From positions 1 to 64,000 of IMG/VR virus record IMGVR_UViG_2830687482_000006: a stretch of DNA of 64,000 nucleotides. One strand, given 5' to 3'. The notes under the pieces were generated by a model. The model did no database searches. It had not been told where the DNA came from and saw only the letters and a list, made by a program, of their open reading frames with translations. The stretch is from a virus (Duplodnaviria > Caudoviricetes). The position numbers and the translations under genes were made by a program. Below, piece by piece: positions 59,680 to 63,993 of the stretch (position 1 is its first letter; each line of letters opens with the position of its first letter).

Positions 59680-59755
59680 TGGCACAGGCACAAAGACTCG
59701 AACTTTGCTCTTCGGTTTTGGAGACCGATACATCACCTCTAAATGCTTTACCTGC
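59680..59755 (-). tRNA. tRNA-Trp(CCA)
   Basis: cloverleaf, loop CTCCAAA, CCA end. Confidence 0.92.
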
Positions 59756-59841
59756 TCTACAGGTACCTCCTAAACCATCCACTCTAGTCATTTTACACTC
59801 ACAAGGAGGACCATGAGGGCATCGTGCTGGGTAGATATACT

Positions 59842-59916
59842 TGGTAGTTCCGGAGAGATTCGAACTCTCACCCCGGCCCTTATGAGGGGCTGGCTCTACC
59901 ATTGAGCTACGGAACT
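59842..59916 (-). tRNA. tRNA with CAT anticodon (elongator Met or Ile2)
   Basis: cloverleaf, loop CTCATAA, CCA. Confidence 0.88.
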
Positions 59917-60012
59917 ACAGATTTTCATAGACCTAATGAGCCAGTCAAAATGGGAGAACCAGAGCAGCGGGGAAATCCTCGAAGAGATTGGACATTCTAA
60001 TTCTCCTAAAAA

Positions 60013-60103
60013 TGGTCTGGAAGGTCAGATTCGAACTGACAAGGGATATTACTCCACCCGCTTCCAAAGCGGGACCGCTACCTGATTACGGGCCTACTCC
60101 CAG
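60013..60103 (-). tRNA. tRNA-Pro(TGG) with long variable arm (91 nt)
   Basis: C1:G72, A73, loop TTTGGAA, 16-nt variable region. Confidence 0.8.
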
Positions 60104-60110
60104 AGAAATT

Positions 60111-60187
60111 TGGCTGACCATGTAGGACTCGAACCTACCATATGCAGATTAACAGTCTGCCCCGTCCACCTTGTTCGGCTATGGCCA
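60111..60187 (-). tRNA. tRNA-Asn(GTT)
   Basis: cloverleaf, loop CTGTTAA. Confidence 0.92.
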
Positions 60188-60204
60188 TCATTGCTTGAAA
60201 ATTT

Positions 60205-60279
60205 TGGTAGCGGGAGAAGGACTCGAACCTTCGACCTTCAACTTATGAGGCTGACGAGCTGCCACTGCTCTATCCCGCT
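60205..60279 (-). tRNA. tRNA-Met(CAT), initiator-like body
   Basis: GAGCAG...GCTCG D-arm like fMet; A1:U72; lacks three G-C anticodon-stem pairs. Confidence 0.85.
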
Positions 60280-60415
60280 ACACCTAGTTTGATGCTTAAA
60301 CCCCACAGGGGGTTATGCCATCGTATCTGCCTCAGAGATACTCTATGATTTTTCACGTTTCTCTCCTTTCCAGATTGAGTTGATAACTTTCCTTTAGAGG
60401 AAATTTTTATATGTG

Positions 60416-61021
60416 TCAACTCTTCATTTCAGCCCACTTACCTTGTTCATCATAATCGAAAGTTTTTTTGAATGCTACACCAGATTTACGGTGAAACATA
60501 ACAATACCTTCTGGGTCCATGAAGCCGGGGGCGTGATAGCTTCCATTTTCCTTTAACATGGTCATTATGCCTTGAGCCGCACCATCCGGATTATTCAGAT
60601 ACTCATCTTGAATAAAAGTGTGAACAACCTCACAACATTGAGGACGATCTGGATTATCTTTCCAACGCAAGCTGTTGAAAAGTGCAAATCTTTTTTCTCC
60701 GCCAGTCAGCCCATAACCTCGCTTGATTCCAGAACCATACCACTCTCCGAAGTGTCGGCCTTCCCCTAGTTTGAAAAGCTCACTAACATTATGTGAAACA
60801 AATCGAGCAAAACCCATGTTATCCTTATCTAAGGATAACCAGCGGTTGCGCGAACCAGCAAATAGATAATAGCCCTCATGCTCTGTCAGAGCAGCTCCGG
60901 GTTCTGATTGATAATCAGCCTTAGGTCGCCAAGCAACCTGCGCATTAGTTCCATCAAGTTTTTCAGTTATCGTCCAACCCTGACTAAAACGAGTCAAACT
61001 AGAAAAGCGTTCAAAGTCCAT
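60416..61021 (-). CDS. RNA ligase (Rnl2-type adenylation domain)
   Basis: TEKLDGTNA motif I, FGEW, FALF, EGIVM, FKK. Confidence 0.85.
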   Translation of the reverse strand: MDFERFSSLTRFSQGWTITEKLDGTNAQVAWRPKADYQSEPGAALTEHEGYYLFAGSRNRWLSLDKDNMGFARFVSHNVSELFKLGEGRHFGEWYGSGIKRGYGLTGGEKRFALFNSLRWKDNPDRPQCCEVVHTFIQDEYLNNPDGAAQGIMTMLKENGSYHAPGFMDPEGIVMFHRKSGVAFKKTFDYDEQGKWAEMKS

Positions 61022-61235
61022 TGATAATCTCCATCAAGTCTATTGGGGTGTAATTGATTTGTTCCATGCTCACACAACGGTAGCGAGGGTCTGAATAATT
61101 TCCATAGAAGATTTCTCCTACTTTTGACTGTATCAATTTATCATGAGTATGCCCATGCACATTTAATTTCCATCTATTCATGGATTGAGGGTGAATAGGA
61201 ATATGAGACATGATCAACCCATGCTCCGGCTTCAC
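61011..61235 (-). pseudogene. truncated metallophosphoesterase (C-terminal half only)
   Basis: SHIPIH...NVHGHTH...CVSMEQINYTPI; N-terminal DxH/GD/GNH motifs absent; SD-linked ATG is out of frame. Confidence 0.65.
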
Positions 61236-61258
61236 GAGCCATATGTATCTCCTAAAAC

Positions 61259-61335
61259 TGGTTCCCCGCTCAGGCCTCGAACCTGTTTCTTGGGATTCAA
61301 AGTCCCAGATTTTAACCAAATTAAACTATCGGGGA
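61259..61335 (-). tRNA. tRNA-Gln(TTG)
   Basis: loop CTTTGAA, CCA. Confidence 0.88.
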
Positions 61336-61336
61336 A

Positions 61337-61410
61337 TGGAGCGGAATGCGGGACTCGAACCCGCTTCTTTAGCTTGGAAGGCTAAGGCACAACCCATATA
61401 CCAAATCCGC
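61337..61410 (-). tRNA. tRNA-Gly(TCC)
   Basis: loop CTTCCAA, U73, CCA. Confidence 0.92.
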
Positions 61411-61412
61411 AA

Positions 61413-61485
61413 TGATGGAGCATAACGGAGTTGAACCGTTCCTAGCTCCTTGCAGGGGAACCGTCGGCACCCCCTCGGATGACCT
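61413..61485 (-). pseudogene. degenerate tRNA-Ala(TGC)
   Basis: T arm intact, G3:U70 and A73 kept; C33, poor D arm, acceptor mismatches, TCA instead of CCA. Confidence 0.6.
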
Positions 61486-61700
61486 TAAACTTGTATGTAA
61501 TCAAATCTTCCTTTTACATTCTCGTTAAAGAAAATTCCAACTGAATTTGCTATGATCATAGATTCATAAATTGTTTTTGGAACCGCATCATATTCATAAA
61601 CAAGTCCTGAGTTGAACTCCACTTCCAAAGTCTCTGTAGACTCATCATATCCCACAGCAGCAATATTTGAACTTGAGACCGATATTCTATCCATTTTCAT
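61485..61700 (-). CDS. KTSC domain protein
   Basis: AGGAG SD; VSSSNIAAVGYD...LEVEFNSGLVYEY...SVGIFFN. Confidence 0.9.
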   Translation of the reverse strand: MKMDRISVSSSNIAAVGYDESTETLEVEFNSGLVYEYDAVPKTIYESMIIANSVGIFFNENVKGRFDYIQV

Positions 61701-61709
61701 TCTCCTAAA

Positions 61710-61784
61710 TGGTGCCGGATTGAGGACTCGAACCCCATTCTTTCGCTTACAAGGCGACTGCATCCCCACTATTGCTCATCCGGC
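61710..61784 (-). tRNA. tRNA-Thr(TGT)
   Basis: loop CTTGTAA, CCA. Confidence 0.92.
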
Positions 61785-61786
61785 GC

Positions 61787-61862
61787 TGGTGTAGAAGGTA
61801 GGACTCGAACCCACATCTGCGAGGCTTCAACTCGCCGCTAAGACCTCATCAGCTACTTCTAC
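61787..61862 (-). tRNA. tRNA-Phe(GAA)
   Basis: loop TTGAAGC (G37), CCA. Confidence 0.9.
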
Positions 61863-61863
61863 A

Positions 61864-61944
61864 TGGACCCCCAGACAGGATTCGAACCTGCATTTTCATC
61901 CAGTTATCCGTTTCTTGGTTCGTAGCCAAGGGGAATACTGAGGG
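61864..61944 (-). tRNA. D-armless tRNA-Arg(ACG)-like RNA
   Basis: 7-bp acceptor, CTTGG-CTACGAA-CCAAG anticodon arm, T arm, CCA; only 7 nt replace the D arm; 22-nt variable region. Confidence 0.8.
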
Positions 61945-61945
61945 A

Positions 61946-62020
61946 TGGTAGTCCGTGAGAATTATGCTATCCCGACCTTCCCCTTGTAAGGGGGACGCTC
62001 TACTTCTGAGCTAACGGACC
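61946..62020 (-). tRNA. tRNA-Val(TAC), non-canonical T loop
   Basis: loop CTTACAA; T-loop AGCATAA. Confidence 0.85.
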
Positions 62021-62022
62021 AT

Positions 62023-62098
62023 TGGTTGTTCCAGTAGGACTCGAACCTACGACACAGCGATTATCAGTCGCTTGCTCTACCAACTGAGCTATGGAACA
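62023..62098 (-). tRNA. tRNA-Ile(GAT)
   Basis: canonical cloverleaf. Confidence 0.95.
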
Positions 62099-62238
62099 TC
62101 ATTCTTAACGTCAAAATATCCTTTCAACCAAATCCATTTATTTTTCCCTCGTTTGAAAGGACAATCTGAATGAGAAAGACCATTATATGCCGCTGATCTT
62201 CCATTGTTTTCTACTGAACCTTCATTCCAATGTAGCAC
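62089..62238 (-). CDS. Rmf-like small protein (49 aa)
   Basis: AAGGAG SD 7 nt before GTG; NGRSAAYNGLSHSDCPFKRGKNKWIWLKGY. Confidence 0.7.
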   Translation of the reverse strand: MLHWNEGSVENNGRSAAYNGLSHSDCPFKRGKNKWIWLKGYFDVKNDVP

Positions 62239-62251
62239 ATCATATCTCCTT

Positions 62252-62326
62252 TGGTCGGCCCGAGGGGAATCGAACCCCCATTTCCTGATTGAAAGTCAAG
62301 CGTCTTAGCCATTAGACGACGGGTCG
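62252..62326 (-). tRNA. tRNA-Glu(TTC)
   Basis: loop CTTTCAA, CCA. Confidence 0.9.
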
Positions 62327-62360
62327 TCTACCAGCTTAACTCAATTCTCAATGTAGGAGT

Positions 62361-62486
62361 TGGGTTTAGACTAGTAGAGAGGTTCAGCCGAAGCGAATCT
62401 CTCGTTCACGCACGACAGCGAACCCACCTTGGCGGGTCGCTGTCGTTCCAATAAAGGTTGCGTTACTAGTCATAATGATCAACCCA
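62361..62486 (-). ncRNA. unclassified structured RNA candidate
   Basis: nested stems TGGGTT/AACCCA and GACTAGTA/TACTAGTC, a 10-bp hairpin and a cUUCGg-capped hairpin. Confidence 0.6.
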
Positions 62487-62512
62487 TAGCAAGGTAAATG
62501 ACCTATGTCAAG

Positions 62513-62570
62513 TGGAGCGACGAACAGGACTCGAACCTGCATGTTCTTGAGCCATTTCCGCCACCGTCGC
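62513..62570 (-). ncRNA. 58-nt mini-tRNA (acceptor + T arm, Leu-like relic)
   Basis: 7-bp acceptor, T arm and CCA; 23-nt middle TGGCGGAAATGGCTCAAGAACAT. Confidence 0.7.
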
Positions 62571-62582
62571 TAAAGAAAGAAG

Positions 62583-62659
62583 TGGTGAACGGCCCTAGAC
62601 TTGAACTCGGAACCCCCGACTTAAAAGGACGGTGCTCTAACCTATTGAGCTAGCCGTTC
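62583..62659 (-). tRNA. tRNA-Lys(TTT)
   Basis: loop CTTTTAA, CCA. Confidence 0.92.
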
Positions 62660-62971
62660 ACGAATAAAAGCACCTTTGGTGCTGAAAAAACCATAACGAT
62701 GCTTGGCTTGCTCTGCCCTAGCAAACGCACCGAGCAGAGTTTCTCTTGAATATGTTTCGGGACTCCATTGACCTTCTAGACCATAACAGGAACAATGTCC
62801 ACCTGAAACATAATAGTATGTGTCTCCATTTCTATACAGAACATCAGCACTACCATCGCAACCATAAGCTTCATGATCATACTGAGCATATAGAACCTCA
62901 TCTGGTTCTGGGTCGTTCATCGCAAATTCTCTTTGAACATCTCCCCAATTACTGAACAGATCATAATACAT
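62642..62971 (-). CDS. conserved phage hypothetical protein
   Basis: AGGAG SD; VSGGHCSCYGLEGQWSPE motif. Confidence 0.8.
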   Translation of the reverse strand: MYYDLFSNWGDVQREFAMNDPEPDEVLYAQYDHEAYGCDGSADVLYRNGDTYYYVSGGHCSCYGLEGQWSPETYSRETLLGAFARAEQAKHRYGFFSTKGAFIRERLAQ

Positions 62972-62988
62972 ACTATTCTCCTTAAAAA

Positions 62989-63066
62989 TGGTGCGCCTAG
63001 TAGGACTCGAACCTACAACCTACCGATTAGAAGTCGGCAACTCTATTCCAGTTGAGCTATAGGCGC
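62989..63066 (-). tRNA. tRNA-Arg(TCT)
   Basis: canonical cloverleaf, loop CTTCTAA. Confidence 0.95.
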
Positions 63067-63074
63067 AAAAACTA

Positions 63075-63315
63075 TGGCCCGTTCTGTTCCACGGTGGGCC
63101 AAGCCGGTGTCAAGAGCAGTTAAGCTGCGAGACGAAGTGCCATTTCTGGCTGGTTATCATTGACAGTTATCAATGTTGATCTTTTAAGGTAATCACACCT
63201 ACAACCTCACACTAGCTTATCCCGTCAGTCGATACCCTTTCACCCCCATTATGGTGGAGGTGGGCGCACTCGAAGCGCCGTCCTGTCCGTATTCACTAGT
63301 GGTCAGCGATTGTTC
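63075..63315 (-). ncRNA. ssrA: circularly permuted two-piece tmRNA
   Basis: T arm + CACCTCC-A-CCA (ends 63252), TAAT spacer, GGGGGTG 5' end (63247) with G3:U70; tag VNDNQPEMALRLAA* at 63120-63164; outer ends approximate. Confidence 0.92.
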
Positions 63316-63434
63316 CTCAAAACTTCCTGCATAAACTTCTTAAAGTCGGCATCACTTCCGGTTCCTTTGCCTAAATTAGCAGCGGTGCAAACAAATTGCA
63401 CATTTCCTTCTCCGCTGTCAACAGATAGTTTCAC
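63303..63434 (-). pseudogene. HNH-type endonuclease C-terminal remnant
   Basis: KLSVDSGEGNVQFVCTAANLGK resembles the SxDRID...GNVxxVCxxxNxxK tail of phage HNH proteins. Confidence 0.45.
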
Positions 63435-63993
63435 TCACCATATCCGTGAAGTTTAGATCAACCCCTAAAATCCACTTATGTGAAGGATACCTTGGAACCC
63501 AACGAGAAAACCTATGAACACTGCTAGCCAGCGCCAGTGGTGATTCTGATCTTATCAGGCGAAAAACCTTATCATCATGATCTTCCAAATAGCCCTTGCT
63601 TCTTTCCAAGTATTTTCCATTAAAAGAAATTTGACAAAGACCATAATCGAATCTCTGAGTTATATATTGAATACTCCAATTCACAAAAATTAGTTGGATT
63701 GGGGGAAGTCCTTCAACATCCATATTAGTCACTAATATAATTTCTCTCATAGATTCAGGATACCAAGCATCGGTATCATTTTGCTCAGGTTCTTTTCCCC
63801 CTAATAATTTGTTAAGGGCTGTAGCTTCACTTTCTGAGCCACAAGCTACAAAGAAATCTAAATCTTTTACATCTAGGCCATGATCTAAATCTCTTAAAGA
63901 CCCTCCAGCAAGAACTACTTTAGAATGAATAGTTTGAAACTTAAGTAGAAGATCGACCCATTCTTTTGGAATGTCTTTTTCGGTAATCATCAC
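63418..63993 (-). CDS. nucleotidyltransferase (CCA-adding/poly(A) polymerase head domain)
   Basis: LAGGSLRD...KDLDFF, RFDYGLCQI. Confidence 0.85.
   Translation of the reverse strand: MMITEKDIPKEWVDLLLKFQTIHSKVVLAGGSLRDLDHGLDVKDLDFFVACGSESEATALNKLLGGKEPEQNDTDAWYPESMREIILVTNMDVEGLPPIQLIFVNWSIQYITQRFDYGLCQISFNGKYLERSKGYLEDHDDKVFRLIRSESPLALASSVHRFSRWVPRYPSHKWILGVDLNFTDMVSETIC

Follow-up and report, generated by a model that had tools for sequence, protein, structure and literature searches.

A dense array of tRNA genes in the window, the 64-kb stretch of phage DNA analysed here, is interrupted between tRNA-Lys and tRNA-Glu by a strongly folding segment, which raises the question whether this segment represents a stable non-coding RNA, a small gene or both at once. 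The initial annotation described it as an unclassified multi-stem RNA of about 126 nt that would be released as a discrete RNA by the processing of the flanking tRNAs. According to our analysis both the fold and the reading frame are constrained, and the description that suits the element best is that of a bifunctional RNA/mini-ORF leader.

The window comprises the first 64 kb of a 75,082-bp contig, which is the longest contig in a metagenome bin of 4.35 Mb and has a G+C content of 42% compared to 49% in the remaining bin. Genes encoding a terminase, a portal protein, a major head protein, a family A DNA polymerase, a ribonucleotide reductase and a helicase are located on this contig, and the terminase shares approximately 40% identity with its counterparts in Caulobacter phage Seuss and Achromobacter phage JWF. 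Based on these structural and replication genes and on the terminase similarity the source is an uncultivated tailed phage of about 75-83 kb. No terminal direct repeat was found on the phage contig. Its final 60 bases (about 75023-75082 of contig G000:C559) consist of a short tandem repeat with a GGCGGCGAAGTTGGTGGC-like unit. The presence of a two-piece tmRNA of the alphaproteobacterial type in related phages points to an alphaproteobacterial host.

The 16-gene array extends, together with a circularly permuted tmRNA, over positions 59680-63314 on the minus strand of the window, with an RNA ligase gene and small ORFs interspersed. Besides tRNA-Glu(UUC), the genes closely downstream of the element include tRNA-Ile(GAU), tRNA-Val(UAC) and tRNA-Arg(ACG). 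The tRNA-Val(UAC) gene, which has a normal anticodon arm and an aberrant T-arm region, completes the order Glu-Ile-Val that is conserved among the relatives described below.

The segment 62361-62486 (126 nt) was predicted to fold on the minus strand with a free energy of -57.3 kcal/mol (z = -7.15), and none of 200 shuffled sequences was as stable. The minimum-free-energy fold consists of a helix P1 of 6 bp, a helix P2 of 8 bp, a long hairpin and a hairpin capped by a UUCG loop, arranged around a three-way junction. It thus reproduces all four helices that had been read from the letters on the tRNA strand, and the location between tRNA-Lys (upstream) and tRNA-Glu (downstream) was confirmed as well. 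The designation as unclassified also stands, as a search of 62361-62486 against Rfam 15 retrieved no overlapping match even at E <= 10, and the three homologues matched no Rfam family at gathering score. The coordinates of the individual parts and of the neighbouring features are given in Table 1.

Table 1. Features of the element and its surroundings (window coordinates).
Feature	Position	Strand	Remarks
Conserved core, three-way-junction RNA (P2, P3, P4), ~105 nt	62369..62473	minus	based on R2 scores and the same architecture in 4/4 members
P2 5' strand (GACUAGUA)	62464..62471	minus	contains the start-codon G and codons 2-4; pairs with 62369-62376
P2 3' strand (UACUAGUC)	62369..62376	minus	in the 3' untranslated part
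P3 distal hairpin	62412..62446	minus	15 bp with a single bulge and an AAGG loop; variable in sequence with pairing retained; codes for the variable peptide middle
13-nt bulge with invariant CCUUUAUUG	62447..62459	minus	codes (T/A)-F-I-(G/D); invariant in 4/4 members
P3 basal 3' strand, junction GAAC and P4 hairpin (UUCG loop)	62377..62411	minus	first 22 nt form the conserved block coding V-V-R-E-R-E-I
P1 5' strand (UGGGUU)	62481..62486	minus	unconserved; overlaps the -10 box
P1 3' strand (AACCCA)	62361..62366	minus	unconserved
Mini-ORF	62384..62473	minus	AUG at 62473, 29 codons, stop UGA 62384-62386
Promoter-like box	62483..62511	minus	-35 TTGACA (62506-62511), 17-nt spacer, -10 TATGGG (62483-62488)
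Fast-evolving spacer, 42 nt	62327..62368	minus	between the element and tRNA-Glu
tRNA-Lys	62583-62659	minus	upstream neighbour of the element
tRNA-Glu(UUC)	62252..62326	minus	first gene downstream of the element in 4/4 members
tRNA-Val(UAC)	61949-62020	minus	Rfam match of 47 bits; missed by ARAGORN at default settings

Homologues of the element were detected in three related uncultivated alphaproteobacterial phages (L122, L125 and L128), and the comparison comprises only these four nucleotide members, including the window, and one close variant (X4). A covariance model derived from the single sequence (R1) gave no match in 86 viral loci near homologues of the neighbouring small ORF, in five related virus records, in short contigs bearing the neighbouring Gad2-like gene, or elsewhere in the genome assembly that contains the window, where the element is single-copy and without an antisense partner. 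An exact 24-mer and a degenerate pattern based on P2 and P4 found no match among the viral contigs and genome contigs; the sole metagenome-contig match of the degenerate pattern (L120) was discarded as a chance match, and the pattern proved too specific. An alignment of the helicase against the genome contigs found nothing, blastn and tblastn searches against 50,697 phage records retrieved tRNA-Lys or chance matches only, and a six-frame peptide search in 47 genomes of the bin's family gave no match.

Longer related contigs were reached via homologues of the neighbouring helicase, and the model then gave weak matches directly upstream of tRNA-Glu in L122 and L125. The fourth member, L128, was found in IMG/VR by means of a pattern built from the shared motifs; the pattern for finding further members is CTTTATTG, a gap of 25-50 nt and TGCGYGAACGAGAGA. 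A covariance model built from the four members (R2) scores 82-111 bits for the window, L122:5018-5122, L125:5165-5265 and L128:3037-3137, and neither approximately 1.5 Mb of loci nor 23 records of related viruses yielded another accepted match. Two matches of 14.6 bits in G018 and G019 were rejected, being without P4 (half the structure) or tRNA context.

In all four members the element is followed by tRNA-Glu(UUC), tRNA-Ile(GAU) and tRNA-Val(UAC) in this order, and it was found only where tRNA-Glu-Ile-Val is located downstream. The closest virus record (G001) is syntenic with respect to the Gad2-like gene, the tmRNA, the tRNA array and the helicase; both G001 and a further related locus (L127) possess neither the element nor tRNA-Glu. 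The tRNA array of G001 contains two other strongly folding non-tRNA spacers (L111:16731-17007 and L111:17331-17551, plus strand, -90 kcal/mol each), which share no sequence with the element. Non-tRNA RNAs appear to turn over fast in these tRNA arrays.

Each of the four members, when folded alone, gives the same three-way junction, which is composed of the closing helix P2, of P3 with its basal helix, bulge and distal hairpin, and of the hairpin P4. On the model-based alignment 88% of the cells are paired, compared to 18-44% if the partners are slid against each other. Changes on both sides of a pair occur in three of 19 pairs. Two of these lie in P2, where L122 carries U-A instead of A-U and A-U instead of G-C, and the helix is kept in all four members.

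Public low-depth DNA contigs aligned to the stretch (runs X2 and X4) provided a comparison over a shorter distance. The near-identical metagenomic variant X4 differs by six transitions, all of them inside the long hairpin (P3), and no pair is broken: two pairs are compensated (G-C to A-U and C-G to U-A), one A-U pair has become G-U and one G-U pair has become G-C. In simulations of six random transitions, two double changes together with no broken pair were obtained with P = 6e-4, or with P = 0.01 if the changes were confined to the hairpin. Run X2 shows no change across the 52 nt of the element that it covers, while the last 34 nt of the spacer before tRNA-Glu carry 5-6 changes in X2 and X4. 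The covariation that had been called for in support of the pairing was thus found, both as compensatory pairs in X4 and as both-sided changes in P2.

The same comparisons narrow the unit that had been proposed. The outer helix TGGGTT/AACCCA (P1) is not conserved in the three homologues, and its 5' strand coincides with part of the -10 box. A possible pseudoknot between ACCUU in the bulge and AAGGU at the apex is contradicted by X4, in which two of the five pairs are broken by the very changes that are compensated inside the hairpin, and by the homologues, whose apical loops carry no AAGG. Of the unit of about 126 nt, the structured RNA as such is real, and the conserved unit is 62369-62473 plus the promoter-like box.

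Each member was recoded 500 times with the same peptide and phage codon usage and with the 3' untranslated strand kept. The native folds are much more stable than these recodings (z -6.2, -5.4, -3.8 and -3.1), and at most two of 500 recodings (0-2) reached the native stability. Combined with the compensatory changes, the recoding result demonstrates selection on the RNA structure, irrespective of translation of the frame.

The plus strand of the segment folds too (z -6.1), as is expected because of its inverted repeats. This folding of both strands and the inverted-repeat appearance would also fit an element that acts at the DNA level or a functionless processing hairpin, i.e. a recombination site, a terminator or a mere spacer. 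We consider this very improbable, given that the G-U pairs in X4 and the switches between G-U and Watson-Crick pairs are compatible with a minus-strand RNA only, that no hairpin of the element is followed by a U-tract, and that sequence blocks are conserved far past the requirements of pairing. Furthermore, the other tRNAs of the array are spaced by only 1-5 nt and need no such element.

A ribozyme, a protein sponge or an antitoxin-like RNA had also been suggested initially. The topology of a three-way junction would fit such readings, and the pairing between the 5' and 3' ends of an RNA with a small ORF recalls the hok-type toxin mRNAs. Among the explanations considered here, self-cleaving ribozymes, antitoxin-like RNAs and type I toxin mRNAs are nevertheless the least probable. 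Neither the element (E <= 10) nor its homologues (gathering score) matched a ribozyme, toxin or antitoxin in Rfam, a catalytic core of the hammerhead type is not conserved, and tandem repeats are absent. The encoded peptide is polar and charged, unlike a membrane helix, and the genome contains neither an antisense partner nor a second copy.

A feature overlooked in the initial annotation is a conserved AUG frame of 29-33 codons, which occupies most of the core. It is open in all four members (29, 29, 29 and 33 codons) with conserved N- and C-terminal motifs, and the L122 copy was called as a gene of 33 amino acids. The open frame alone means little, since the other frames of this stop-poor sequence are largely open too. 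A profile of the four peptides retrieved eight clusters of 29-35 amino acids from 1.84 billion protein representatives (E-values 3e-11 to 8e-6), which are located on contigs of the same phage lineage and align end to end, although these library peptides were ascertained by an intact frame. In most members the length from AUG to stop is 29 codons. Both indels within the frame of L122 are multiples of three. The 22-nt conserved block, which spans the junction together with the adjoining 3' strand of P3 and 5' strand of P4 and encodes V-V-R-E-R-E-I, has just two variable sites, both of them synonymous third positions. Over the whole frame 20 synonymous codon differences were counted, compared to nine and 12 in two shifted control frames.

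These findings have to be weighed against a close rival, namely that the element is a purely non-coding small stable RNA which is transcribed from its own promoter, is freed on its 3' side by RNase P at tRNA-Glu, and uses the conserved junction strand and the invariant bulge (CCUUUAUUG) to bind a host or phage protein or RNA. In that case the open frame would be a by-product of a stop-poor, GC-rich structured sequence in which other frames are open as well. Such an RNA is quite possible. It would account for the strong conserved fold with its compensatory changes and for the closure of both ends by P2, as in stable RNAs, and the stable RNAs rnaC and rnaD of the T4 tRNA cluster offer a precedent. 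The variable sites are distributed over the first, second and third codon positions as 11, 16 and 15 of 28, non-synonymous differences dominate (about 12-15 compared to 3-4 synonymous ones per pair), and the conserved block shows stronger conservation of third positions than coding by itself would call for. All three codon positions are conserved in two blocks, and elsewhere the second positions vary like the third. The peptide itself belongs to no Pfam or PHROG family, and its AlphaFold2 model is of low confidence (pLDDT 56).

A purely structural constraint is less easily reconciled with the way in which the conserved 3' strand pairs. Its register differs from member to member, the partners being the variable codons 3-6 and the untranslated 3' end. 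This is the pattern to be expected if a further constraint fixes one strand and the other, being free, adjusts to it, and it would be unusual for a fold under structural constraint only, whereas codon constraint predicts it. The in-frame indels, the fixed AUG-to-stop length of 29 codons in most members and the amino-acid composition, which is special in the AUG frame and in none of the five other frames (see below), likewise argue against the non-coding RNA. Taken together, the frame carries a coding signal that we rate as weak to moderate, judging from sequence comparison.

Taking both constraints into account, our preferred, though still tentative, reading assigns the element to a phage tRNA unit (tRNA-Glu, tRNA-Ile, tRNA-Val and onward) as its promoter-proximal, heavily structured leader, which carries a probably translated mini-ORF. 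A promoter-like box is located directly upstream of the element. In all four members TTGACA is followed by exactly 17 unconserved nucleotides and TAT(G/A/T)(G/T)(G/A), while the context farther upstream differs, with a mini-tRNA in the window, intergenic DNA in L122 and a small ORF that ends there in L125 and L128. The -10 box is without the usual final T. Alphaproteobacterial promoters of the housekeeping sigma-70 type combine a TTGACG-type -35 box with a loose -10 box (PMC5377333). The motif TTGACA-N16-18-TAT occurs seven times in the window compared to 2.05 expected occurrences (3.4-fold), and none of 100 shuffled sequences reached seven. All seven sites (204, 5603, 42925, 44540, 44735, 55873 and 62486) are candidate host-type promoters.

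All four members have an A as the seventh base past the -10 box; it is located 3 nt ahead of the conserved AUG, and in L122 it is the A of the AUG itself. We infer a transcription start near 62476. Release by processing of the flanking tRNAs, as proposed initially, is consistent with the 3' side only, where RNase P would cut at tRNA-Glu. For the 5' side a transcription start seems more likely than a tRNA-processing product, because the conserved TTGACA-17-TATnnn box lies directly upstream.

Leaderless mRNAs are common in alphaproteobacteria. In Caulobacter they account for 9.6% of the coding sequences and their starts are unstructured (PMC4117421). As points against our preferred reading, the mini-ORF has no clear Shine-Dalgarno sequence, and its start codon adjoins a stable helix, unlike the Caulobacter starts. 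The structured leader with its mini-ORF would presumably operate as follows. The host sigma-70 RNA polymerase would start about 3 nt before the AUG at 62473, as suggested by the conserved -35 and -10 boxes, so that the RNA would be leaderless or nearly so, and the free 5' end of the nascent RNA may allow a ribosome to load. The final 15 nt, once made, would pair back on the region of the start codon (P2) and on the block of Glu and Arg codons (P4) and thereby close the three-way junction. By analogy with established tRNA processing, RNase P would then cut at the 5' end of tRNA-Glu and free a leader of about 150 nt, and exonuclease trimming would halt at P2, so that a stable RNA would remain.

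Between the element and tRNA-Glu the sequence evolves fast, and the corresponding spacers of the homologues (45-53 nt) are poorly alignable. No terminator-like site was detected in 62327-62473, the spacers are without a U-tract, and a clear C-rich Rho site was not found between the ORF and tRNA-Glu. A putative Rho site in the spacer was dropped from consideration, as C is not in excess over G.

The composition of the peptide might point to a more specific role for such a leader. For 28 of the 29 residues in the AUG frame, the array encodes a tRNA of the same amino-acid type downstream, compared to a fraction of 0.65 in the phage proteome (binomial P = 6e-5, in a test conceived with the peptide already known), while each of the five other frames gave P >= 0.45. 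The relatives reach 27 of 29, 27 of 29 and 28 of 33 residues, the four peptides being homologous and not independent. The conserved C-terminal block is made up of Val, Arg, Glu and Ile and matches the tRNA-Glu, tRNA-Ile, tRNA-Val and tRNA-Arg(ACG) genes that follow. This regularity fits a leader peptide that samples the tRNA supply of its own operon. We treat it as a lead only, because the test was post hoc, the peptides are related, and GC-rich stems, when translated in frame, favour Ala, Gly, Thr, Arg and Val anyway.

As a special case of the structured leader, the mini-ORF might accordingly serve as a leader-peptide sensor of the phage tRNA supply for Glu, Ile, Val, Arg, Phe, Thr, Ala, Gly, Gln, Met and Asn. 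Scarcity of charged tRNA, e.g. after cleavage of host tRNAs, would stall the ribosome and refold the leader, which would alter how the downstream tRNA precursor is transcribed or processed or how stable it is; in this manner the progress of the ribosome would reshape the three-way junction and adjust the yield of the phage tRNA operon. The arrangement resembles that of the attenuator leaders of the trpL, thrL, ilvL and pheL type, which contain a co-directional ORF of 14-32 codons directly upstream of the controlled genes. As in these leaders, the ORF, which here directly follows the promoter-like box, overlaps conserved hairpins, with its stop codon inside P4. Codon identity and frame, and not the peptide in its entirety, are conserved, as in classical attenuators, in the form of conserved codon blocks around a variable middle, and an ORF of the attenuator type can report several amino acids at once, as could the one described here.

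Nevertheless, such a sensor seems unlikely. The element differs from attenuator leaders in several respects: it lacks a run of one regulatory codon, neither a terminator hairpin with a U-tract nor a clear C-rich Rho site was found ahead of tRNA-Glu, and an alternative pairing scheme was not found either. Moreover, attenuators control biosynthetic enzymes, whereas the genes downstream of the element encode tRNAs. Our search of the literature available to us gave no leader peptide controlling tRNA genes, and to our knowledge translation-coupled feedback has not been described for any tRNA operon.

By homology the element belongs neither to the attenuator leaders nor to the T4 stable RNAs nor to the known dual-function RNAs. 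In bacteriophage T4 the tRNA cluster contains two non-tRNA RNAs, rnaC (species 1, 139 nt) and rnaD (species 2, 119 nt). Like these the element is a non-tRNA RNA on the tRNA strand beside a tRNA gene, and its place is kept in the three relatives. Unlike them, it shows no similarity at the level of sequence or model, and R1 finds nothing in the T4 tRNA region. The rnaC RNA has a tRNA-like T-arm, which the element lacks, and rnaD folds weakly (z -0.83, compared to -7.15 for the element). The element is further distinguished from rnaC and rnaD by its own promoter box and conserved mini-ORF.

Dual-function small RNAs with a mini-ORF include RNAIII, which encodes delta-haemolysin, SgrS with SgrT, and SR1 with SR1P. 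The element resembles them in being a fold-selected RNA that also carries a short conserved frame, and it differs from them in that the ORF fills nearly the whole RNA and is located at the head of a phage tRNA operon. The 3'ETS-leuZ sponge of E. coli is an example of a tRNA-operon spacer that has a role of its own and is freed by tRNA processing. RNAs of this type offer a short unstructured pairing site in a trailer, whereas the element is a 105-nt junction in a leader with an ORF. With the small structured RNAs of the YrlA (Rfam RF02553) or Y-RNA-like type, which occur near tRNA genes in some phages, the element shares the stem that joins the 5' and 3' parts; it matches neither the YrlA nor the Y_RNA model of Rfam and contains no tRNA-like domain.

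A catalogue of 10,006 candidate viral structured RNAs includes tRNA-like and upstream cis-regulatory candidates (PMC10690425), and the passages of this work that were available to us mention no small ORF or leader of the kind described here. The family is absent from Rfam, Pfam and PHROGs.

Several further candidates were discarded. The likeness to a Y RNA is limited to a chance occurrence of ACUAGUC without a model match. A role as a CsrA sponge was suggested by a GGA motif in the apical loop, which is lost in the X4 variant. In the bulge, a mimic of the tRNA-Lys anticodon loop was considered, in which position 37 is not a purine and which would be placed in a bulge instead of a hairpin loop. 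A MITE or another mobile element with inverted repeats was rejected on account of the single copy and the lack of a target duplication.

Phage tRNA arrays are commonly read as plain lists of tRNA genes. The present array appears to contain an internal unit of transcription, at whose head a conserved folded leader keeps a frame of 29 codons, and the conserved mini-ORF and promoter-like box set the element apart. If the frame is translated, it may add a micro-protein to an island of tRNA, tmRNA and RNA-repair genes, or it may instead couple translation to the expression of tRNA genes, a principle of regulation that would be new. Without translation of the frame, the element would represent a novel stable RNA of phages in which two single-stranded motifs are invariant. 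In either case structured phage RNAs that are taken as non-coding can conceal conserved mini-ORFs, and calls of small ORFs can conceal selected RNA folds.

The surroundings of the element contain further features. A tRNA-like minihelix of 58-63 nt (62513-62575, minus strand) has an acceptor stem of 7 bp, an encoded CCA and a canonical T-arm (GGUUCGAGUCC) and is without an anticodon arm. It stops 1 nt short of the -35 box of the element, and in the three relatives its site is occupied by the end of an ORF or by intergenic DNA. An ORF of 109 amino acids (62642-62971, minus strand) between tRNA-Arg and tRNA-Lys is widespread in phages and belongs to no family. Its final 18 nt overlap tRNA-Lys, and a terminator-like hairpin with a U-tract (62669-62683) is located within its 3' end.

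The tmRNA is adjoined by a gene for a protein of 191 amino acids termed nucleotidyltransferase (63418-63993, minus strand), which has a precomputed assignment to Pfam PF26128 (Gad2, an anti-Gabija family). Besides itself this Gad2-like protein has three relatives among 5.8 billion proteins. The tRNA arrays of the related phages contain or adjoin genes encoding NUDIX and NAMPT/NAPRTase proteins (NAD salvage), an RtcB RNA ligase, and HNH and LAGLIDADG endonucleases (L122:2064-4443, L127:4215-6585, L126:341-1570, L122:5452-5979 and L125:9197-9691). The tRNA island is a hot spot for RNA-repair and mobile genes.
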